A program made the translations under genes and the position numbers. Source: a virus (Duplodnaviria > Heunggongvirae > Uroviricota > Caudoviricetes). From it: a stretch of DNA of 10,702 bases. The notes beneath the pieces are model-generated. The model was not told the origin of the DNA and searched no databases. It saw only the letters and a program-made list of their open reading frames with translations. The stretch lies in IMG/VR virus record IMGVR_UViG_2693429676_000015; one strand, given 5' to 3'. Positions 1-10,702 of the stretch are shown here, one piece after another. The first letter of the stretch is position 1, and each line of letters begins with the position of its first letter.

Positions 1-30
1 AAACACTATCAATAAGTTGGAGTCATTACC
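1..30 (+). mobile_element. IS1 right terminus (last 30 bp, including the terminal inverted repeat); the rest of the element lies outside the window
   Basis: Sequence aaacactatcaataagttggagtcattacc matches the right end of IS1 as I recall it (...CATAAAACACTATCAATAAGTTGGAGTCATTACC). Recognised from memory, not searched. Confidence 0.8.
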
Positions 31-162
31 AAACGGTTGAAATGTATGCCGCTACTTACGGGTCCTGTAATCCTCTGAATAAACCAGAGGGAAAAGATGA
101 TTTCGACAAAATTTACCGCTTCTTGGAGGACCGCTATATCAAAAGCTTAGAGGACGCAGGGA

Positions 163-540
163 TCAAATCCCCAGTGAAGTCACCATTGTCCTGAGAACTT
201 GCAGAACGTCATGATCATAACTTCCATCCAAACCGCGACGGCGAATTGCTTCTCGTATTACCGGAAGCAGTTCGCTGGAAATCTCGGTGCATATTTCACC
301 TGATAATACGCTTGGCTCAAGTGAGAATATTGGTGAACTTACGGTCTTGGTCTCGACAGTTTCAGAGTCAGTGCCAACATTATAAAGCTCAACGAAAGCG
401 GTCTTGATTTTCCGGGCCAGATCTTTTGCTGGCTCGCTTGCAATATCTTTCCCGATTTCTCGCAGCACAGAATGCAATGTATGAGCTGCTGTTTTCTGTA
501 CATCAGACGGTAAATCTTTAAATTCCATCGTCAGCCTCAT
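163..540 (-). CDS. Hypothetical early-left prophage protein (125 aa; 121 aa if it starts at the second ATG, MEFKDLP...)
   Basis: Intact six-frame ORF. Its first ATG overlaps the stop of the upstream small gene (TGATG on the minus strand), suggesting coupling; a GAGG lies 7 nt before the second ATG. No recognisable motif. Confidence 0.5.
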   Translation of the reverse strand: MRLTMEFKDLPSDVQKTAAHTLHSVLREIGKDIASEPAKDLARKIKTAFVELYNVGTDSETVETKTVSSPIFSLEPSVLSGEICTEISSELLPVIREAIRRRGLDGSYDHDVLQVLRTMVTSLGI

Positions 541-692
541 CAGTCAGTGTTTCTGGCTAACCAGCAACGCGCGCCAGATTCGGTTTTAAACGTTTTGCTT
601 TTGGTATACGTCATGGCGGTAAACGTTCCATCCTGGTTAGGGAACACGCCGCACACCAGAGATTCGTTGTTGCCAAGATCGATAGTATCCAT
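540..692 (-). CDS. Small early-left prophage protein (about 50 aa, MDTIDLGNNESLV...); possibly YdaF-like
   Basis: Internal ATG at 692-690 is preceded by a good Shine-Dalgarno (aaggggaaatGAGGtcagcATG on the minus strand). The longer 68-aa ORF from 746 has no RBS. Position (first gene of the leftward operon next to the operators) fits a lambdoid early-left gene. Family is a guess. Confidence 0.45.
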   Translation of the reverse strand: MDTIDLGNNESLVCGVFPNQDGTFTAMTYTKSKTFKTESGARCWLARNTD

Positions 693-859
693 GCTGACCT
701 CATTTCCCCTTAACGCCGGGGTGGCGGAACAAAAAACCTGCTGCATAGTTAAAGATTGAACCCTGCCGTCATGTTCTTACGCCTCGGGCTGGCTACTTAA
801 CCCCTGACCACTGTCTGGTAACTCGAAGTATTGCCCTGCATTCTGTGGGGCGGGGTGGG

Positions 860-930
860 TTGACGCCTGAAACAATAGCATCATTATTTTTTTTTGATGT
901 AAATAGCATCGCTATTGTTTTTTGTTGGGG
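860..930. promoter_or_regulatory. OL-like operator/promoter region with two repressor-site candidates (874-888 AATAGCATCATTATT; 902-916 AATAGCATCGCTATT)
   Basis: Two 15-bp sites of form AATAGC-N3-GCTATT (902-916 is a perfect 6+3+6 palindrome), 28 bp centre to centre. The same motif recurs in the repressor/cro intergenic region at 2013-2027 and 2038-2052. A TTGACG (861-866) and T-rich tracts are nearby. Promoter elements are not confidently placed. Confidence 0.5.
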
Positions 931-956
931 CAAGAAAAAACCACCCTAAGGTGGTT
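925..956 (-). terminator. Rho-independent terminator for the leftward repressor-antitoxin-toxin transcript
   Basis: Stem AACCACC (939-945) and GGTGGTT (950-956) with loop CTAA. On the minus strand the hairpin is followed by TTTTTTCTTG. It lies 17 bp downstream of the toxin stop at 973. Confidence 0.5.
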
Positions 957-972
957 CTGTCGGCGGGAATAA

Positions 973-1263
973 TTAACTGTTTTTGCCTGGATACTGTCTT
1001 CGAGAATGCACAATATTTACTACTTCTATGCTTGATGCTGTTACTCGGTAAAGGATGATGTAGTTAGGATGAGTTACAATTTCACGAAGACCAAGAACTC
1101 GCTCGCTTGGAGGATACAGGTAAGGATGCTCTGTGAGCGGCAAAACGGATGTTTCAATTCGAATTTTCATTCTGCGTGCTGCCGCGGGATTTTCTTTAGC
1201 TATGTAGGCTACGATCTGGCGCAAATCATCACGAGCAGATGGTAGCCATAAAACGGGTAACAT
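973..1263 (-). CDS. parE: ParE/RelE-family type II toxin (96 aa)
   Basis: Size and N-terminal sequence (MLPVLWLPSARDDLRQIVAYIAKENPAAA...) are typical of ParE/RelE toxins. Start ATG overlaps the stop of the upstream antitoxin ORF by 1 nt (TAATG). Follows a repressor-antitoxin pair as in paaR-paaA-parE modules. Confidence 0.75.
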   Translation of the reverse strand: MLPVLWLPSARDDLRQIVAYIAKENPAAARRMKIRIETSVLPLTEHPYLYPPSERVLGLREIVTHPNYIILYRVTASSIEVVNIVHSRRQYPGKNS

Positions 1264-1457
1264 TATTCACCTCTGTGAGTTGCAGCAGCAATTTGGGCAA
1301 TAATTTGTTCCATTTCCGCCATTACCTCATCATGCGGAATCGCCGGGCGGGGATCCGCGAGGCTTGCTGCTACTTTGGCCCGCAGCCATTCGTTGTAACT
1401 ATTTTCTTGCTCAACTGTCTCAAATTCTGAAACCATTGGGGAAAGGACTGTACTCAT
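1263..1457 (-). CDS. paaA: PaaA-like antitoxin (64 aa), partner of ParE
   Basis: Small acidic protein (MSTVLSPMVSEFETVEQENSYNEWLRAKVAASLADPRPAIPHDEV...) that strongly recalls the PaaA2 antitoxin of E. coli O157:H7 (from memory). A GAGGAG lies 8 nt upstream of the ATG, and it is translationally coupled to the toxin. Confidence 0.65.
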   Translation of the reverse strand: MSTVLSPMVSEFETVEQENSYNEWLRAKVAASLADPRPAIPHDEVMAEMEQIIAQIAAATHRGE

Positions 1458-1476
1458 TTTACATATCTCCTCTGAT

Positions 1477-1977
1477 TTAGGCGCGACGGCCTTTTTGTGC
1501 AGCTAACCACCGCGCAACCGTACGATCCATTGATTCTTTTTTATCTTTCATCTCCTGAAGCATGTGTTCTTGATCTTCTTTCGGAAAAGCTCTGAACGTA
1601 TGGATTAAATCTCGTTCCATCGGCTCTACGGCAAACGGTAGTTCATCCTCTGTTTGTTCTGTGTCTGCTGGTAATGCGACTATGTTATCTTGCTGTGGTT
1701 CTCGACAATACATCCTTGCAATTTGCAGCAAATCTACCATGTCTGGCCTGATTGACTCAGGGGGAACTTTCAGTAAGCCAGCAAACTTTAGAACAGCCTC
1801 AAGGTTTAGTGGGGTTTGACCATTTAGGTAGTGACTTACCGCCCCTTGTGTTGAAAACCCCATAATTTCCGCCGCACGTTCCTGAGTCAATCCCAACTGA
1901 GATTTCTTTGCCATCCAGATTTCTTTCAGTCTTCTGGCGGCGTTGAGGTCGGTGTCTGACAATGATTTTCTTTTCAT
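1477..1977 (-). CDS. paaR: CI-like/PaaR-like HTH (XRE-family) repressor, 166 aa from ATG at 1977 (the ORF track extends to a GTG at 2007)
   Basis: N-terminal HTH (LTQERAAEIMGFSTQGAVSHYLNGQTPLNLEAVLKFAGLLKV). Divergent from a Cro-like gene across an operator-bearing intergenic region. First gene of a three-gene operon with the antitoxin and toxin. No S24 peptidase motif is evident in the C-terminus. Confidence 0.75.
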   Translation of the reverse strand: MKRKSLSDTDLNAARRLKEIWMAKKSQLGLTQERAAEIMGFSTQGAVSHYLNGQTPLNLEAVLKFAGLLKVPPESIRPDMVDLLQIARMYCREPQQDNIVALPADTEQTEDELPFAVEPMERDLIHTFRAFPKEDQEHMLQEMKDKKESMDRTVARWLAAQKGRRA

Positions 1978-2088
1978 ACATCCAATTCTAATAAGATTGC
2001 TAATCACTTTGAAATAGCATCACTATTTACTTTTAAAAATAACAGTGCTATTAATTATGCATTGGTAACACATCACATAGGGCGGATT
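1978..2088. promoter_or_regulatory. OR-like divergent promoter/operator region between the repressor and the cro-like gene
   Basis: AT-rich 111-bp intergenic region with two copies of the OL motif: 2013-2027 AATAGCATCACTATT and 2038-2052 AATAACAGTGCTATT, 25 bp centre to centre. Confidence 0.55.
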
Positions 2089-2352
2089 ATGAATCTTGGA
2101 GAATATTTGCATCATTTTCATATAACCCAGAGTTCATTTGCTGAGATTGTTGGCGCATCCCAAGGGATGGTCAGCCACGTTATAACGGGGCGTGCAAAAC
2201 TTACAGGAGAAAAAATATTACGTTGGTGTGAAGCAACGGGATGGGTGGTGACCCCACATGAGATTGACAGTAAAACCTACCCCAACCCAACTGACGGCTT
2301 GCCTGCTGAGTTTCAGGCTAACACACAACCATCGGCGGGGGTTGATTCATGA
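2089..2352 (+). CDS. Cro/YdaS-like small HTH regulator (87 aa from ATG 2089; the ORF track starts at a TTG at 2062)
   Basis: HTH segment (QSSFAEIVGASQGMVSHVITGRAKLTGEKILRWCEATG). AGGG Shine-Dalgarno 7 nt upstream of the ATG. Divergent to the repressor. Its stop overlaps the next gene's start (ATGA at 2349-2352). Confidence 0.65.
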   Translation: MNLGEYLHHFHITQSSFAEIVGASQGMVSHVITGRAKLTGEKILRWCEATGWVVTPHEIDSKTYPNPTDGLPAEFQANTQPSAGVDS

Positions 2353-2774
2353 AAATCAAGCATGAACACATCCGCATGGCGATGAAAGCCTGGGCGCATC
2401 CGGACGGTGAAAAAGTTCCGGCAGCTGAAATAACCAGGGTTTATTTCGAACTGGGAATGACGTTTCCGGTTCTGCATAACGACAGCAAGCACAACACGCT
2501 TTATCTCAACACCCAAAAGATTTTCCGTTGGCTGGATAAAGACACCCCTGACGCTGTTGAAAAAATTCAGGCGTTGTTACCTGCGATCGAAAGGGCAATG
2601 CCACCTCCGCTGGTGGCTCGAATGCGCAGCCACAGTTCAGCTTATTTTCGGGAACTGGTGGAGACGCATGAACGACTGGTGAGAGACGCTGATGATTTTG
2701 TCGCAGTGGCAATCGCCGGTTTCAATCAGATGAACCGTGGTGGCCCGGCAGGAAATGCTGTGGCAGTACATTGA
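2349..2774 (+). CDS. YdaT-like protein (141 aa), possible CII-like regulator of the Rac-type immunity module
   Basis: Starts MKIKHEHI..., which I recall as the N-terminus of Rac-prophage YdaT; the length (about 140 aa) and position directly after the Cro/YdaS-like gene also match. Translationally coupled to the upstream gene. Confidence 0.6.
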   Translation: MKIKHEHIRMAMKAWAHPDGEKVPAAEITRVYFELGMTFPVLHNDSKHNTLYLNTQKIFRWLDKDTPDAVEKIQALLPAIERAMPPPLVARMRSHSSAYFRELVETHERLVRDADDFVAVAIAGFNQMNRGGPAGNAVAVH

Positions 2775-2845
2775 CTGACAATAGCCATATCGAATCGCTC
2801 CCGGCAACTCGTGAGTAAAAAGATTCGGTATCAGAAGAGGTGAGT

Positions 2846-3910
2846 ATGGCTAACGCCTGGCTCAGATTATGGCATGACATGCCAAATGACCCTAAGTGGC
2901 GAACAATTGCCAGGGTGTCAGGGCAGCCAATTGCAACAGTGATGGCAGTGTATATCCACCTCCTGGTGAGCGCGTCACGAAATGTCACGCGAGGTCACAT
3001 TGATGTCACGACAGAAGATTTGGCAAGTGCGCTCGACGTGACAGAAGAGGTAATTGATTCAATTTTGCAGACGATGCAGGGGCGGGTACTTGATGGTGAT
3101 TTAATCACTGGATGGGAAAAACGCCAGGTGCTTAAAGAGGACAACGGCAATATTTCGCAAACCGCAAAATCTCCTGCAGAGCGCAAGAGGGCGCAGCGAG
3201 AGAGGGAAAGAAAGCGGGAACAAAATGGCGATTGTCACGGCGCGTCACGAAATGTCACGCACATGTCACGACGAGTCACGACAGATACAGATAAAGATAC
3301 AGATAAAGAAGATCAAAACACTATGGTCCATGGCGTAAAAAACGCCACGAACCAGGCAGGGGATGTTCAGACCGTCAATCCTGGTCAGCCAGCAGGCTCG
3401 ACACCGGAAGCCGATTCAGCGTATGCGCTGAAAGCCGATTCGGGCGCTGTGCAGCAGGTGATGACCGCAAGGCCGGAGCAATCACTCCAACTGCAGCAGC
3501 CTGAAGCCGATTCCGCCATTCAGCGGGAAGCCGATCGGGTAGCCCCGGAAAACACCGGGCAGCCTGTGGGACGAGTGGATTATCCGGATGTGTTCGAACA
3601 GGTCTGGCGGGAATACCCGTTGCGTGCCGGGGCAAACCCGAAGAAATCCGCATTCAGTGCCTGGAAGGCCAGATTGCGCGAGGGGGTGCCACCAGAGACC
3701 ATGCTGGATGGTGTGAGGCGTTACGCGAGATACCTGGCGGCGACCGGGAAAGCGGGAACGGAATTTGTTCAGCGAGCGACGACGTTTTTTGGGCCGGACC
3801 GGAATTTTGAAAACCCCTGGTTGCTCCCGGTAAGCGGCACGAACAACCAGCGTTGTGTGAATCATATTTCTGAACCGGATACCGAAATTCCGCCGGGATT
3901 CAGGGGGTGA
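2846..3910 (+). CDS. Phage replication initiator (lambda O-like role; YdaU-like position), 354 aa from ATG 2846
   Basis: GAGGTG Shine-Dalgarno 4-5 nt before the ATG. Position is immediately upstream of the DnaC-like loader. The coding sequence contains origin-like iterons and an AT-rich tandem repeat. The C-terminal region (YPDVFEQVWREYPLRAGANPKKSAFSAWKARL) resembles motifs in phage replisome-organiser proteins. Not verified by search. Confidence 0.6.
   Translation: MANAWLRLWHDMPNDPKWRTIARVSGQPIATVMAVYIHLLVSASRNVTRGHIDVTTEDLASALDVTEEVIDSILQTMQGRVLDGDLITGWEKRQVLKEDNGNISQTAKSPAERKRAQRERERKREQNGDCHGASRNVTHMSRRVTTDTDKDTDKEDQNTMVHGVKNATNQAGDVQTVNPGQPAGSTPEADSAYALKADSGAVQQVMTARPEQSLQLQQPEADSAIQREADRVAPENTGQPVGRVDYPDVFEQVWREYPLRAGANPKKSAFSAWKARLREGVPPETMLDGVRRYARYLAATGKAGTEFVQRATTFFGPDRNFENPWLLPVSGTNNQRCVNHISEPDTEIPPGFRG
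2971..3318. repeat. Putative phage origin of replication: two clusters of GTCACG iterons at about 10-bp phasing plus an AT-rich tandem repeat, inside the initiator gene
   Basis: Cluster 1: GTCACG at 2973, 2983, 2993 (GTCACA) and 3004. Cluster 2: GTCACG at 3234, 3244, 3254, 3265 and 3275. The two roughly 45-bp blocks (gcgtcacgaaatgtcacgc...) are near-duplicates. An inverted copy (cgtgac) is at 3046-3051. Tandem gatacagataaa x2 at 3284-3307. Confidence 0.55.
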
Positions 3911-3916
3911 TGTGGC

Positions 3917-4663
3917 ATGAAAAACATTGCGGCAGCCGGGGTTCTTGAACGTATTCACAGACTTGCACCACAGGGGGCGGTTCCACCGTACCGGACGGTG
4001 GAGGAGTGGCGGGAATGGCAACTTGCTGAAGGACGAAAACGCAGCGAGGAGATTAACCGCCAGAATCGCCAGTTGCGGGTGGAAAAAATCCTGAATCGTT
4101 CGGGCATCCAGCCTCTGCACAGCAAATGCTCGTTTGCGAATTATCAGGTGCAGAACGACGGGCAAAAATACGCGCTGAGCCAGGCCAAATCCATAGCTGA
4201 CGAACTGATGACCGGGTGCACGAATTTTGTGTTCAGCGGTAAAACCGGCACCGGGAAAAATCACCTTGCAGCGGCGATGGGTAACCGGCTGATGGCGAAG
4301 GGGCGCAGCGTGATTATCGTCACCGAGTCTGATGTCATGAGCGTGTTGCATGACAGCTACGACAACGGCAAATCCGGTGAAAAATTTTTACAGGAGCTTT
4401 GCGGGGTTGATTTGCTGGTCCTGGATGAAATAGGCATTCAGCGGGAGACGAAAAACGAGCAGGTGGTATTGCACCAGATAATTGATCGCCGGACAGCATC
4501 ACTGTGCAGTGTCGGGATGTTAACAAACCTGAATCATGCCGCAATGAGCACGCTTCTTGGTGAGAGGATTATGGACCGCATGACCATGAACGGTTGTCGG
4601 TGGGTGACGTTTAACTGGGATAGCTGGCGTTCAAATGTCAGCTTTCCGGGAGTTGTGAAGTAA
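3917..4663 (+). CDS. DnaC-like replicative helicase loader (IstB-like AAA+ ATPase; Rac YdaV position), 248 aa
   Basis: Walker A FSGKTGTGKNHLAAAMG and Walker B LLVLDEIG; N-terminal region typical of DnaC-like loaders; directly follows the initiator gene. Confidence 0.85.
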   Translation: MKNIAAAGVLERIHRLAPQGAVPPYRTVEEWREWQLAEGRKRSEEINRQNRQLRVEKILNRSGIQPLHSKCSFANYQVQNDGQKYALSQAKSIADELMTGCTNFVFSGKTGTGKNHLAAAMGNRLMAKGRSVIIVTESDVMSVLHDSYDNGKSGEKFLQELCGVDLLVLDEIGIQRETKNEQVVLHQIIDRRTASLCSVGMLTNLNHAAMSTLLGERIMDRMTMNGCRWVTFNWDSWRSNVSFPGVVK

Positions 4664-4684
4664 TTTTTGTTGGAGGATGTTTTA

Positions 4685-5410
4685 ATGGAAACTGTATTTG
4701 ACGCACTGAAAGCACTGAAAAGAGCCTCTTCACATGTGGTGGCGTCCCGCCTTGGAATCAGCCGTGAAGATGCGGTCAACGAACTGTGGAAACTGAAGCG
4801 CCGTGGTGAAGCGGATAACAAGGGTTCGATGTGGTGGCTGATTCAGGCTGGTGAAAGTGAACCAGTGTCACCGGTACCGAAAGTGACAGCGCAAATGCTG
4901 ACTGAGGCGATTGAACAACATGGCCCACAAACGGCGGATGAGCTGGCACTGATGTTCGGGATTACCTCCCGCCGGGCGAATTCATCGCTGGCCATGGCAA
5001 TCAGCAAAGGGCGTCTGATTCGCGTGAATCAGGGCGGTAAATTTCGGTACTGCATACCGGGCGCTGATTTACCGGCAGAGCCGAAAGCCGCATCCATAGC
5101 GGAAACGGATGGTAAAGTCTTTCCTCAGCCAGCAGGTGTTGCGTTACCGGTACAGGAAGCTGCAACACAGGAAGAAATTAAAACAGAAACTGTGGCGGAC
5201 ATTGTGCAGTCGTTGCCATCGTTCACCGAAACGCAAGCGGATGACCTGGTTTTACCATCGCTGCATATGGCAAACCGCGAACTGCGTCGGGCGAAAAGTC
5301 ATGTCCAGAAGTGGGAGCGTGTCTGCGCCGCGTTGCGGGAGCTGAACAAGCACCGGGATATTGTTCGACAGATTGTCGATTCCTCCGGTCGTATTGTGTC
5401 GGAAAAGTGA
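4685..5410 (+). CDS. Hypothetical phage protein with winged-helix-like N-terminus (241 aa from ATG 4685; YdaW-like position)
   Basis: GGAGG 8 nt upstream of the ATG at 4685 (the ORF track starts at a TTG at 4667). Intact ORF in the operon. Function unknown. Confidence 0.6.
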
Positions 5411-5425
5411 TTGCCGGGGGCGCTT

Positions 5426-5636
5426 ATGGCAAAAGTATTTACACAGGAAGAGCGGGAAAAAATTAAGGGGCAGGTTGTTGAACTCGTACGCCAGAGTGGG
5501 CGCGAGACGTTACGACAACTGGAAGCTAAAACCGGGGCGACAAGATATTTAATAAGCGTTCTCGCCAGAGAGCTGGTTGCCAGTGGGGATGTATACAACT
5601 CTGGCTACGGGTTATTCCCGTCTGAACAGGCTCGTA
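5426..5636 (+). pseudogene. 5' portion of a phage gene (MAKVFTQEEREKIKGQVVELVRQSG...), interrupted at the N at 5637
   Basis: ATG at 5426 with a G-rich Shine-Dalgarno. Positions 5446-5636 are identical to 6577-6767 (copy 3). After the N at 5637 the sequence switches to the antisense of an IS3-family orfA. Confidence 0.4.
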
Positions 5637-5637
5637 N

Positions 5638-5993
5638 TTTTTCAGCGACTCCTGTGCAAAATACGCTGTTGCTTTTTTTAATATATCTCGCTCAAGGCGA
5701 GCTTCATTTAACGCCTTACGCAGTTGCAGAATTTCAGATTCCAGTTCAGCCACCGTGCGGGAACCAGGAGTACCGAGCCCTTTTCTGGCGGCGGTAACCC
5801 ATTGTCCTAAAGTGCCTTCAGGAAGAGATAATCGGGAAGCGCCTTCACTGATCGAAAGTTGATTTTCAGGAACCGTTCTGACAGCTTCGGCTTTGAACTC
5901 TTTAGAGTAACGTTGGGTTTTTCTGCTCATTATTAGCTCCTTCTGATGCCATTCTATTTCAGGAAGGAGTGTCCGTTAAACTCAGGCTACCTC
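5638..5993 (-). mobile_element. IS3-family insertion sequence fragment (left end plus N-terminal part of orfA; IS600-like from memory)
   Basis: Minus-strand ORF MSRKTQRYSKEFKAEAVRTVPENQLSISEGASRLSLPEGTLGQWVTAARKGLG...LERDILKKATAYFAQESLK is a typical IS3-family OrfA (HTH plus leucine zipper). The element end reads TGAGGTAGCC... on the minus strand near 5993. It is truncated at the N at 5637. Confidence 0.7.
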
Positions 5994-6384
5994 AAAAATT
6001 AAAGGGCAGGTTGTTGAACTTGTACGTCTGAGCGGTCGCGAGACGTTGCGGCAACTGGAAGCCAAGACAGGTGCGACAAGATATCTGATGAGTGTTCTCG
6101 CCAGAGAGCTGGTTGCCAGTGGCGATGTATACAACTCTGGTTACGGGTTATTCCCGTCTGAACAGGCGCGTAAGGACTGGCAAAACGCCCGCAAAAAACT
6201 CTCAAGGGCAAATCTGAAGAAACCATCTGTGGTTGATCCTGACCTTATCTGGTCATTACCAGACGGAGAAATACGCCGCTACGACAGGCGTCAAAACATA
6301 ATCTGTAGCGAGTGCCGGAAGAGCGAAGCTATGCAGCGTGTACTGGCTTTCTATCAGGGTAATTTTCAGAAGGTGCTGTTGTGA
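5994..6384 (+). pseudogene. 5'-truncated divergent paralogue of the same phage gene (copy 2), preceded by the IS3-family end
   Basis: Aligns to copy 1 and copy 3 from ...KIKGQVVEL to the stop, with scattered nucleotide differences (roughly 5-8% by eye) and a few amino-acid changes. No start codon, because the IS end abuts it. Confidence 0.5.
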
Positions 6385-6456
6385 GCCAAATTAACAATCG
6401 GAACTTCGTGAAGAGAAAGCATAATCCAAAATCTGAATAATTAAGTTCAGCACTGT

Positions 6457-6571
6457 GGTGATGCTGCCAACTTACTGATTTAGTGTATGATGGTGTTTTT
6501 GAGGTGCTCCAGTGGCTTCTGTTTCTATCAGCTGTCCCTCCTGTTCAGCTACTGACGGGGTGGTGCGTAAC
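6457..6571 (+). mobile_element. insA: IS1 left-end fragment (inverted repeat plus the first 20 codons of insA), truncated by the N run
   Basis: ggtgatgctgccaacttactgatttagtgtatgatgg... and the encoded MASVSISCPSCSATDGVVRN match the IS1 left end and InsA N-terminus as I recall them. The sequence stops at NNNNN (6572-6576). Confidence 0.8.
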
Positions 6572-6576
6572 NNNNN
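6572..6576. other. Run of 5 N (assembly gap or scaffold join); a single N also occurs at 5637
   Basis: Literal n characters in the sequence. Confidence 0.95.
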
Positions 6577-6979
6577 GGAAGAGCGGGAAAAAATTAAGGG
6601 GCAGGTTGTTGAACTCGTACGCCAGAGTGGGCGCGAGACGTTACGACAACTGGAAGCTAAAACCGGGGCGACAAGATATTTAATAAGCGTTCTCGCCAGA
6701 GAGCTGGTTGCCAGTGGGGATGTATACAACTCTGGCTACGGGTTATTCCCGTCTGAACAGGCTCGTAAGGACTGGCAAAACGCCCGCAAAAAACTCTCGA
6801 GGGCAAAGCTGAAGAAACCATCTGTGGTTGATCCGGACCTTATCTGGTCATTACCAGACGGAGAAATACGCCGCTACGACAGACATCAGAACATAATCTG
6901 TCGCGAGTGCCGGAAGAGTGAAGTTATGCAGCGTGTACCGGCTTTCTATCAGGGTGATTTTCAGGAGGCGGTACTGTGA
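6577..6979 (+). CDS. 3' portion (copy 3) of the phage gene seen at 5426; with copy 1 it would encode a protein of about 140 aa with a winged-helix-like segment and a CxxC motif
   Basis: Positions 6577-6767 are identical to 5446-5636. Reading frame is open to the TGA at 6977-6979. The ORF-track product 6512..6979 is a chimera with the InsA N-terminus across the N run. Confidence 0.5.
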
Positions 6980-7036
6980 GTGAAATTAGCTATCAGGCTT
7001 CAATTACCGCTGGCATTCGCATCAAAGGAGAGGAGC

Positions 7037-7393
7037 ATGGAAATAAAACCAGAAGATGAGTTAAGCAATATTGTTTTATTTCCGGTAAAAGAGGATAACC
7101 CTCGTAATCAGGTTAATTTTCTTTATGAGCCATCGGAAAGACCATATTGCCATCACGCCTCTGTCCGGGTTGACGAAAAAGAGCGTCAGGTCCGCTGTAA
7201 AATTTGCGGTGCAGTTGTGGAGCCATTTGACTGGATGCTCTCTGTGGCGAAAAGAGAAACCAGACTGGCAGATGATGTAAGGCTCTTGCGCCAGGAGGAG
7301 CGGGAAAGGCGAAAAAATATAGAAAAGCTAATCCAGATTGAGCGTAATGCGAAAGCGCGGATACGCAGGGTGACAAAATATAGCCCCGAATAA
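7037..7393 (+). CDS. Hypothetical zinc-ribbon / coiled-coil protein (118 aa from ATG 7037)
   Basis: AGGAGAGGAG Shine-Dalgarno immediately upstream of the ATG at 7037 (the ORF track starts at a GTG at 6980). Cys/His cluster PYCHHASVRV...CKICGAVVEP, then a basic heptad-like C-terminus (RLLRQEERERRKNIEKLIQIERNAKARIRR). Confidence 0.55.
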   Translation: MEIKPEDELSNIVLFPVKEDNPRNQVNFLYEPSERPYCHHASVRVDEKERQVRCKICGAVVEPFDWMLSVAKRETRLADDVRLLRQEERERRKNIEKLIQIERNAKARIRRVTKYSPE

Positions 7394-7607
7394 TCAAGGT
7401 TATTTCTGGAAGTCAAGTCGTGAGTGATGAGGACTAACAAATACGGTGAACTCGATAAAGAGATTCAGGACGAACTGGAGGCCAGGAATGATTGACAAAT
7501 CACCAAGTGAGTTCAGCTACAAAGATTTATTGTCATAACGGGTTATGAGATCGACTTGGTGCGTGATATTCTTCGGGCCAGTTTGCTATGCGCCACCATG
7601 AGATGTT

Positions 7608-9440
7608 ATGGCCCGCATGTTTGATACATTAGGATTTTACATTATGAATGTGCAACATTTTGATTTTTTTACAGATAATGAGTTTTCTAATCTGGAAAGA
7701 TATCAAACTTGTAAAGCCATGGCCAAAGGTTATGCGGGCAATTACAAAACCGGGCAGTCAAGGTTGATGCATGCCCGCTCATACTGCTTCAGCATCGTAG
7801 CTGCATATTGGGATACCCTTGCAAAAAAGCAAAAAAGCAGCATTAAAATGAGGGCAGTACCGCACACTGTTTACATAGAAGACATTCCATGTGATGCACG
7901 CGAGCTCGCTGAACGAACAGGTGAGCTTATTGCTCAATTTCCGGCGGAGGACGCTGGATATCTGATTGGGTCAATTTATACGGTAATGCTGCCATCCGCT
8001 TACCGTTCGGAATTGGGGGCTTACTATACCCCCCCACCTTTGGTAGCGCGTCTCTTGGACCTGGCTGAAAAGTCTGGTGTTGATTTTTCTCATGCATCGG
8101 TTATTGATCCTGCGTGTGGTGGCGGTGCATTTTTGGCACCAGTAGCCATTCGAATGTTAAAAAAAGACAAGGGGTCTTCCCCTGAATGGATGTTGAGGAG
8201 AATCAGTCGTCGTTTAAAGGGGATAGAAATCGATCCATTTGCGGCTTGGATGAGTTTGGTATTGCTCGAATCTGTACTAATGCCACTATGTGTAAAGGTA
8301 AAACGTAGATTGCCTGAAGATACAATTATTGTTGCTGATGCGCTTCAGCAAGATAAATTTTCTGGTTATGATCTTGTGGTAGGGAATCCGCCTTACGGAC
8401 GTGTCACTCTCGATATTAAAACGAGAGAAAAATATTCTCGTTCGTTATTTGGTCATGCAAATCTATATGGATTGTTCACCGACTTAGCTGTTCGCATGGT
8501 TAAAGAGAAAACAGGAGTTATTGCATTTCTTACGCCAACTTCTTTTCTTGGTGGGCAGTATTTCACCGCGCTGCGAACCCTTTTGACCGAAAAAACTACT
8601 CCGTATGCCCTTGATTTCGTCACTGACAGGGATGGGGTCTTTGACGATGTTCTCCAGGAAACAATGTTGACAGCATTCAAGGCGGGAGAACATAAAGTTC
8701 GGGCCCAGGTATCCTCACTTGTCCCTAAGGGGTTGAACAAAGCAAAAATTGAGAAAATAGGTAATGTTGATATAGAAAAAGGTGGAGCAACGTGGCTTTT
8801 GCCACGCGTTAAAGATGATGCCTGTTTTCTTAATGTATTAAAACAGATGTCTACGCGTTTAGCTGATCTGGGATACTCAGTCTCTACAGGTCAGTTAGTC
8901 TGGAATCGATTTAAGTCGCAGTTGCGTACGACGAAAGGAAAAAATAGCTACCCATTAGTCTGGGCGGAATCAATAACTTCAGCTGGTTTTCGTTTTAGTG
9001 CAGACAGAAAAAATCATGTTCCCTATATCGATATAACCCCACAACAGGGTTTCCTTGTGACAAAATCTGAATGTGTGCTTGTTCAGCGGACAACATCGAA
9101 GGAACAGGACAGAAGGATTTTAGCGGCAATTTTACCTCAGGGATTTATAGATGAAACTGGTGGCGTAGTAGTTGAAAACCATATTAATATTGTATATTCA
9201 AACGGATTGTTCTCTGCGGTTCGCCCTGATGTTATTGATATGCTACTTAATTCGCATGTTGTCGATCGGGCGTTCAGGTGTATAAGCGGAAGTGTTGCTG
9301 TTTCGGCCTATGAATTGAATTCAATCCCGTTGCCTTCTCTGGAGCAGGTGATGGAGATTCAATCGTTAATTGATGCTGGCGTCCACAGACGGATTATTGA
9401 GAGAACTATCGCTGGTTTCTATGGAGTGATGATTGCATGA
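7608..9440 (+). CDS. N6-adenine DNA methyltransferase, gamma-class (Eco57I/TaqI-like motif order), 610 aa; start could instead be the ATG at 7643
   Basis: Motif X GAYYTPPPLV (aa 137-146, nt about 8016-8045), motif I IDPACGGGAFL (aa 166-176), motif IV VVGNPPYG (aa 257-264, NPPY at nt 8386-8397), then about 340 aa of C-terminal, presumably target-recognition, sequence. Confidence 0.85.
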   Translation: MARMFDTLGFYIMNVQHFDFFTDNEFSNLERYQTCKAMAKGYAGNYKTGQSRLMHARSYCFSIVAAYWDTLAKKQKSSIKMRAVPHTVYIEDIPCDARELAERTGELIAQFPAEDAGYLIGSIYTVMLPSAYRSELGAYYTPPPLVARLLDLAEKSGVDFSHASVIDPACGGGAFLAPVAIRMLKKDKGSSPEWMLRRISRRLKGIEIDPFAAWMSLVLLESVLMPLCVKVKRRLPEDTIIVADALQQDKFSGYDLVVGNPPYGRVTLDIKTREKYSRSLFGHANLYGLFTDLAVRMVKEKTGVIAFLTPTSFLGGQYFTALRTLLTEKTTPYALDFVTDRDGVFDDVLQETMLTAFKAGEHKVRAQVSSLVPKGLNKAKIEKIGNVDIEKGGATWLLPRVKDDACFLNVLKQMSTRLADLGYSVSTGQLVWNRFKSQLRTTKGKNSYPLVWAESITSAGFRFSADRKNHVPYIDITPQQGFLVTKSECVLVQRTTSKEQDRRILAAILPQGFIDETGGVVVENHINIVYSNGLFSAVRPDVIDMLLNSHVVDRAFRCISGSVAVSAYELNSIPLPSLEQVMEIQSLIDAGVHRRIIERTIAGFYGVMIA

Positions 9441-10519
9441 ATCTGCCTGTTGTTCCCCCATTGAATGTTATCCGGGAAAGATTACAATTAATTTTCCCTG
9501 AAGGGACTGAGAATCGTGGATATTTAATTCGGGAAATAGCTGCAAAAACAATTTTTGTCATGTTTTATGCTGGTGCGGTTGAGGGGCTGGGGCGATGGAT
9601 AAGGCCCAGCCAGGTTGTAAGTATGGGAGATTCGCAGGCTGCTCTTACTGATGATGCGTCCAGAGAAAGCTGGGTAAAGATGACTTTCTCTAAACAAAAG
9701 ATAAGGCCTGCTGATGCATGGTATGCGGAAAATACGCGTGAGCCAATACGTGATGAAACTATAAAAAATGGCCTAATACCTTGCAATGCAATTGTTGAGC
9801 GTAAAGGTATACCCACCACATCCTCTCGTCCTCGTTACAGTTTGAATCGCTCTTTTGCAGCACTCTTTGATGCCGGGCTTGAAGGAGATTCGCTGCTGAG
9901 TGCAATAAGTTCCTGGCAAGAAAATCATTTGAACAAAGCCGCTCTTGCTAGGTTGCGTTTATTGAAATCAGGGGCAGTGATTGCTGCTGATGCCGTAGTC
10001 GTCACTTTCCCAAATGGAGAGAAGAGAACTTTAGCTCCGGGCCCGTCAAGTACAATAGCTAAGGCCGTCATCGAAGTTTTTGCTCCTAATTTTCTTAAGA
10101 ATCCAACTGTGCTCTGGTTGTCTGAATCCGGGAATAAAGTTGTTGCTCAGGATGATGTATTGGCAAAAGCATTGGGGCTGAATATTGATGCCTCAAAAGC
10201 ACTTCCAGATATTATTTTGATTGATTTGGGAGAGGACCGAACGGGTTCGGACATGCTTGTAGTTTTCACTGAAGTAGTTGCGACAGATGGGCCTATAAAC
10301 AGGGAACGAAAAGTTACTCTCACTCATTTGGCTATTGACGCTGGGTTCAGCGAGAAAAATCTTGCATTCCTTACGGCATTTATGGACAGAAGTGCTCTGC
10401 CTTTTAAAAAGGCAATACCAGAATTGGCGTGGGGATCTTATGCATGGTTTGCTTCTGAACCGGAGCACTTAATTGATCTTCGGGATGGTTATCCGGTAAA
10501 GATCAGCCAGAGAAAATGA
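9437..10519 (+). CDS. Putative restriction endonuclease partner of the methyltransferase (360 aa); BsuBI/PstI-like family is a tentative guess
   Basis: Start ATG overlaps the methyltransferase stop (ATGA at 9437-9440), indicating translational coupling. No methyltransferase motifs. Size and context fit a Type II REase. The N-terminal segment (VIRERLQLIFPEGTENRGYLIREIAAKTIFVMFYAGA) resembles what I recall of BsuBI/PstI-family N-termini. There is a possible acidic cluster at LIDLGED...FTEVV. Not verified. Confidence 0.5.
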   Translation: MNLPVVPPLNVIRERLQLIFPEGTENRGYLIREIAAKTIFVMFYAGAVEGLGRWIRPSQVVSMGDSQAALTDDASRESWVKMTFSKQKIRPADAWYAENTREPIRDETIKNGLIPCNAIVERKGIPTTSSRPRYSLNRSFAALFDAGLEGDSLLSAISSWQENHLNKAALARLRLLKSGAVIAADAVVVTFPNGEKRTLAPGPSSTIAKAVIEVFAPNFLKNPTVLWLSESGNKVVAQDDVLAKALGLNIDASKALPDIILIDLGEDRTGSDMLVVFTEVVATDGPINRERKVTLTHLAIDAGFSEKNLAFLTAFMDRSALPFKKAIPELAWGSYAWFASEPEHLIDLRDGYPVKISQRK

Positions 10520-10671
10520 CCAAAGTTTGATATCCGCCACGCCCTGAAGGATGGGGGTTTTACGGTGCACTGGATAAAAAATCGGTTTCATAGATTTGCC
10601 CACCGTGGTATACGCCTGCGATAAAAACTTTATTGTCATCAACGGCAAAAGCAATAATTGTTCTGTGGCGG

Positions 10672-10702
10672 GGTGATGCTGCCAACTTACTGATTTAGTG
10701 TA
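10672..10702 (+). mobile_element. IS1 left terminus (first 31 bp); the element continues beyond the window
   Basis: ggtgatgctgccaacttactgatttagtgta is identical to the start of the internal IS1 fragment at 6457 and to the IS1 left inverted repeat as I recall it. Same orientation as the IS1 end at 1-30. Confidence 0.8.

Follow-up and report, generated by a model that had tools for sequence, protein, structure and literature searches.

False joins that are produced by automated scaffolding and gap filling of short-read drafts are the closest described counterpart of the structure reported here. GapFiller works inward from both edges of a gap, which it closes only on finding an overlap of 10 nt or more between the extensions (Boetzer and Pirovano, 2012; PMC3446322). 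The Sanger pipeline, in which Velvet and SSPACE are followed by GapFiller with 120 iterations, has been run on 299 Shigella sonnei isolates, giving 405 contigs per assembly on average, and its authors pointed out that greedy tools of this sort 'can lead to false joins' (Page et al., 2016; PMC5320598). With regard to gene content, the sequence is related to Rac-like lambdoid prophages, whose replication modules carry DUF977 (PF06163)/LygF genes, and in which DUF977 follows ydaV-like and DUF1627 genes. In addition, genuine nested IS insertions in Shigella prophage remnants have to be considered as a biological counterpart.

Here, we analyzed a 10702-bp stretch of DNA (hereafter, the window) that is identical to the entire record CXCX01000140.1 (assembly GCA_001258435.1), in which an interval containing pieces of a DUF977 gene, IS fragments and N characters had been interpreted as a probable assembly mis-join at IS repeats. 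It is very probable, judging from comparison with other assemblies, that this interval arose artificially when a short-read draft was scaffolded and its gaps were filled, and that the scrambled arrangement is no biological feature. The locus resembles SSPACE/GapFiller false joins in that a short contig appears to sit between two truly adjacent contigs, short N runs are left, gap edges seem to have been extended from native loci, a flank is duplicated and the organism is the IS-rich S. sonnei. Unlike a case framed on IS repeats, the likely trigger here is paralogue similarity.

The record is a short-read draft assembly of S. sonnei. Assemblies with the neighbouring accession prefixes CXBN, CXBR and CXBV are S. 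sonnei assemblies credited to Holt et al. (2012). On the basis of the accession series and the pattern of N runs, we infer that the record was generated by the Sanger pipeline. In assembled chromosomes, a full IS1 is present directly upstream of the equivalent of the window start, and a full IS1 also follows the equivalent of the window end. Contigs derived from de Bruijn graphs or short reads typically end within repeats, as both ends of the window do in IS1. The features that define the window boundaries and the scrambled interval are listed in Table 1.

Table 1. Coordinates of the window boundaries and of the pieces that make up the scrambled interval (positions are those of the window)
Feature	Position	Strand	Basis and remarks
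IS1 right end, last 30 bp	1..30	+	Matches IS1; left boundary of the draft contig
DUF977 true gene, 5' part, codons 1-70	5426..5636	+	Pfam; flank collinear with chromosomes; ends at the putative residual gap
Single N, probably a scaffold gap left unclosed and filled to one base	5637	.	Each side continues a different native locus
IS600 (IS3 family), nt 1-357: left inverted repeat and OrfA codons 1-97	5638..5994	-	HTH_Tnp_1; IS600-family annotation; one flank of the putatively misplaced contig, extending into the IS interior
DUF977 paralogue, 5'-truncated by IS600	5995..6384	+	Pfam; belongs to the ompW-side prophage remnant
Unique 72 bp downstream of the paralogue	6385..6456	+	Contiguous with the paralogue in other contigs; part of the putatively misplaced contig
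IS1 left end, nt 1-115	6457..6571	+	100% identical to IS1; other flank of the putatively misplaced contig
NNNNN, probably a second unclosed scaffold gap	6572..6576	.	Scan for non-ACGT characters
DUF977 true gene, nt 21 to stop codon	6577..6979	+	Window 6577-10702 collinear with assembled chromosomes
IS1 left end, first 31 bp	10672..10702	+	Right boundary of the draft contig

The original prediction had described three overlapping copies of one gene in this interval, the first and the third of which share an identical stretch. Exact comparison confirmed 191 bp of complete identity between 5446-5636 and 6577-6767. This identity does not extend leftward past 5446/6577, and its right limit is the N at 5637. 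An exact repeat of this length is far above chance expectation. The N at 5637 and the NNNNN at 6572-6576 are the only non-ACGT characters in the window, and, as the original prediction had stated, both boundaries fall on ambiguous bases: each of the two new junctions coincides exactly with N characters, which is what would be expected of an artefact. All three pieces matched DUF977 (48.1, 88.0 and 93.3 bits, with a gathering score cut-off of 22.1). Copy 2 (~5994-6393) could be aligned to copy 3 (6577-6979) without gaps at ~90.5% identity, which supports the proposal of a diverged paralogue at 5994-6384, except for its first base: the end of IS600 reaches 5994, so the paralogue starts at 5995.

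To the right of the first N, 5640-5930 codes on the minus strand for residues 1-97 of an IS3-family OrfA (HTH_Tnp_1, 70 bits), in agreement with the proposed junction between copy 1 and the interior of such a gene on the opposite strand. Full-length IS600 copies with both orfA and orfB match this IS stretch at 99.9% identity, and it is annotated as IS600 family elsewhere. At the second junction, the predicted 115 bp of IS1 was also verified, although its partner is not the middle of the gene as had been thought; the NNNNN is followed by nt 21 of the gene, at codon 7-8. In a contig of the native locus of this piece (the ompW side, see below), IS1 continues beyond nt 115 as a full element.

A minor feature was noticed at the first junction. 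Four bases (CGTA) are common to the true gene and IS600 directly before the N (window 5633-5641), so the BLAST alignment of IS600 runs across the N. The same CGTA begins a 35-bp stretch that is shared exactly by both DUF977 paralogues, which might be a coincidence.

The locus was looked up via the 610-aa methylase encoded at 7608-9440, which was found on thousands of assemblies, with contigs >1 Mb in 76 index blocks. The comparison set consisted of six chromosome-scale sequences of 4.8-5.0 Mb (CP104423, CP032523, CP049185, JANXIU010000003, CP022672 and CP010829), among which CP010829 (FORC_011) and CP022672 (866) are confirmed closed S. sonnei genomes. At the equivalent position, one intact DUF977 gene of 140 aa was present in all six sequences, and its neighbours were always the DUF1627 gene and an ORF that matches window 6980-7393 (annotated with a length of 118 or 137 aa). 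The order of the whole locus was also the same in all six: IS1, a ParE/PaaA2 toxin-antitoxin pair, a repressor, YdaT, a replication protein, a DnaC-like ATPase, DUF1627, DUF977, the 118/137-aa ORF, the methylase, a BsuBI/PstI-type endonuclease and IS1. The intact gene was found as well in the draft contigs that cover DUF977 at this locus.

BLAST searches against the assembled chromosomes revealed that window 1-5636 corresponds to locus coordinates 3526-9160 (99.95-99.98% identity) and window 6577-10702 to locus coordinates 8970-13095 (99.93-99.98%). Thus, 191 bp of the real chromosome are covered by both flanks. When 5637-6767 was deleted, the remaining 9571 bp aligned as a single end-to-end block to each of the six sequences (99.94-99.97%), and the repaired DUF977 gene (423 bp) was identical to that of CP032523. 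Copies 1 and 3 are therefore overlapping halves of one intact gene, and the interval contains two real genes rather than the three copies counted in the original prediction. Comparison with closed genomes of related strains, which had been named as one way of checking the mis-join, showed a single intact gene and collinearity once 5637-6767 was removed.

These data also bear on the possibility that the insert is real in the isolate, i.e. that a truncated IS600, the paralogue and a truncated IS1 entered the DUF977 gene with a 191-bp target duplication and that the Ns are incidental. S. sonnei contains hundreds of IS copies and undergoes frequent rearrangement, which makes such an event conceivable in this species. 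However, the gene is intact in the six chromosome-scale sequences and in the draft contigs, and the chimeric ORF is present on one contig only, so we regard a real insert as highly improbable.

The origin of the middle piece was searched for with the product of the truncated paralogue (98-aa and 112-aa versions). This product sits between a full IS600 (orfA and orfB on the minus strand) and a full IS1 at a locus whose neighbours are ompW, yciC, yciB and yciA, and the original prediction had indeed assigned the piece to another prophage locus, which an IS3-family element disrupts and IS1 flanks. The ompW-side locus is documented on draft contigs only, up to ~134 kb, including contigs of 133.7 kb (AKND01000032), 36.9 kb (AGRD01000051), 33.7 kb (ADUU01000022), 24.3 kb and 8.7 kb. 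Collinearity between this locus and window 5638-6571 holds base for base and extends right up to both N runs. The product was not found on any contig >1 Mb, likely because closed genomes annotate the paralogue as a pseudogene without a protein (PGAP).

The piece also occurs on its own. Ten stand-alone contigs (481-707 bp) were identified, eight of which came from isolate drafts and two from metagenome assemblies; the isolate drafts include CWTT01, CWUL01, CWUQ01 and CXDA01, which belong to the accession series of the window's record. In these sibling records, the middle piece carries far shorter IS flanks. One junction within the piece has a different character from the two at the Ns. The boundary between IS600 and the paralogue at 5994/5995 recurs, free of N characters, in at least 14 independent assemblies and marks a genuine insertion. 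The paralogue and its 72-bp tail have a 99.6% identical counterpart in E. coli ATCC 25922 and M16807, the DUF977 pseudogene of another type of lambdoid prophage.

Several genes located past the truncating IS600 on the ompW side were also observed in two contigs of that locus (positions 1-9900 and 1-9850), encoding Rem, DUF968, RusA, antiterminator Q, a methylase and tail-fibre-like proteins, all on the strand opposite to the DUF977 remnant. The orientation of these late-regulation genes suggests an IS600-associated inversion in the ompW-side prophage remnant.

Examination of the four edges at the two N runs showed that each of them is a plain continuation of the locus it comes from. No more than 4 bp (the CGTA at the first gap) are common to opposing edges, a match which falls below the 10-nt closing threshold of GapFiller, and the outer two edges both span one and the same 191-bp part of the true gene. 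The two DUF977 paralogues have several exact stretches in common (29, 26, 35, 26 and 47 bp), and piece A, the sequence to the left of the first N, stops 4 nt into the 35-mer.

It is likely that similarity between the DUF977 paralogues caused the misplacement, and that the IS elements are simply the sequence that was reached when the edges of the misplaced contig were extended. The part of the original prediction that called the interval an assembly artefact is upheld by the collinearity that the deletion restores with six sequences, and the part that placed the join at IS elements is not. A series of steps may be proposed. The assembler would have broken the true gene owing to the exact 29-47 bp stretches common to both paralogues. 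A paired-read scaffolder, most likely SSPACE within the Velvet/SSPACE/GapFiller pipeline of Sanger, would then have put the paralogue contig, roughly 500-650 bp long in sibling assemblies, into the break between the two gene halves. In the following step, the gap filler may have added read sequence to each of the four edges until little was left of the estimated gaps: the outer edges would have run through the same true gene, resulting in the 191-bp duplication, and the inner edges would have run into the interiors of IS600 and IS1. Finally, the gaps would have shrunk to 1 N and 5 N without closing, because the opposing extensions would derive from different loci and never overlap. By the convention of SSPACE/GapFiller, an over-filled gap leaves a single N.

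An exact reconstruction of the original contig ends was also attempted and had to be rejected: a simple k=31 model puts the end of piece A at ~5662, not at 5636.

The comparative evidence shows that the piece is misplaced and does not show which program did so. An artefact of another kind, such as reference-guided contig ordering (ABACAS/PAGIT type), a wrongly resolved graph or manual concatenation, might therefore be considered, especially as a reference-guided orderer would also place a 90%-identical paralogue contig at this position. On the other hand, such orderers extend no edges, which would leave unexplained the read-throughs into IS600 (~354-357 bp) and IS1 (115 bp) as well as the 191-bp duplication, and the shorter IS flanks on the copies of the piece in sibling records also count against them. 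Reference-guided orderers normally insert long N runs of fixed length. The observed runs of 1 and 5 are better suited to a gap filler that had consumed nearly the whole estimated gap. We thus consider an artefact of this other kind unlikely, and scaffolding followed by gap filling is preferred.

The structure of the junctions provides further information about a real insert, which would have required illegitimate or IS-mediated recombination between two prophage remnants. The CGTA match of the gene and IS600 at the first junction can be read as microhomology, which would be in line with such a route. However, both junctions lie on the sole ambiguous bases in 10.7 kb and all four edges are plain continuations of native loci. 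In addition, each IS fragment lacks its second end (only the left ends, 357 bp of IS600 and 115 bp of IS1, are present), and the N junctions show neither the 3-bp (IS3 family) nor the 8-9-bp (IS1) target duplication, with 191 bp found instead. To our knowledge, no transposition mechanism of IS1 or IS600 yields a duplication of 191 bp. Recombination of this kind therefore has very little probability. Genuine IS1/IS600 transposition at the N junctions was rejected as well, as neither a complete element with both inverted repeats nor a short target duplication was found there. With genuine nested IS insertions of Shigella prophage remnants, the interval has in common the IS600 truncation of the paralogue at 5994/5995; it differs from them at the N junctions, which lack a complete element and a short target duplication and are supported by no other genome. 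If the insert were nevertheless real, it would be the record of an unusual illegitimate recombination between two prophage remnants.

Searches for the arrangement in other collections gave no match. Among complete E. coli genomes (E. coli assemblies only), no record covered at least 80% of the whole arrangement or of the middle piece, and these genomes show the normal gene order of ydaV-like, DUF1627 and DUF977. In phage records, no copy of the arrangement was detected, and only partial matches to Rac-like phages, annotated as LygF/YdaW, were obtained. A scan for the IS600/paralogue junction in GTDB species-representative genomes, among which S. sonnei likely has no representative, returned no match. 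The same was true of the junction between copy 1 and IS600, with or without the N, in JGI metagenome contigs, a collection that is unlikely to hold S. sonnei.

Every ORF that runs across 5637 or 6572-6576 is thus a chimera. The original prediction had named five of these (5411..5797, 5526..5930, 6472..6729, 6483..6683 and 6512..6979), and its view of them is correct. In the scrambled interval, the public record annotates a 128-aa product together with two of these chimeras, of 134 and 155 aa, both of which contain X residues. An exact look-up of the chimeric 134-aa ORF (5526..5930, minus strand, with the X derived from the N) matched CXCX01000140.1 only. As a separate observation, the 128-aa product on the public record is the paralogue, with an apparent ATT start codon at window 5998.

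The significance of this result is limited to data hygiene: the record appears to carry a false insertion of 1131 bp, and no new biology is involved. Chimeric ORFs such as the 134-aa and 155-aa products are now singletons in public protein collections, and surveys of the S. sonnei pangenome or of IS insertions that are based on such drafts could count spurious gene disruptions or duplications.

The real components are ordinary, namely a Rac-like prophage remnant that is bounded by IS1 and carries a DUF977/LygF gene, the ompW-side remnant with its IS600-truncated paralogue, and IS1. Both real genes match DUF977 with E values of 1e-25 to 1e-27, and DUF977 follows the ydaV-like and DUF1627 genes at this locus in the same way as in Rac-like prophages; nothing unusual was found in this respect. 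The left part of the prophage remnant encodes, at window 973-1457 on the minus strand, a ParE-family toxin of 96 aa together with a PaaA2-type antitoxin of 64 aa, and a YdaT-family gene at 2349-2774 comes after this pair. A 21-bp exact direct repeat, GCGCGTCACGAAATGTCACGC, was observed at 2970-2990 and 3240-3260, 270 bp apart, inside a 356-aa ORF of the replication module (2840-3910) that has no Pfam match. The two copies could be iteron-like sites or could have arisen by chance.

The prophage remnant also contains a type II restriction-modification pair (window 7608-10519, plus strand), in which the stop codon of the 610-aa N6-adenine methylase (Eco57I/N6_Mtase domains) overlaps the start of a 360-aa BsuBI/PstI-family endonuclease. 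This pair is kept in all S. sonnei loci fetched. In about half of the index blocks carrying the methylase, it lies on contigs of 2-5 kb only, one of which starts at window 7081. A gene of another prophage type shares 97.9% identity with the ORF at 6980-7393. Together with the short methylase contigs, this similarity implies that the IS1-bounded island is often fragmented by paralogue similarity in short-read assemblies.
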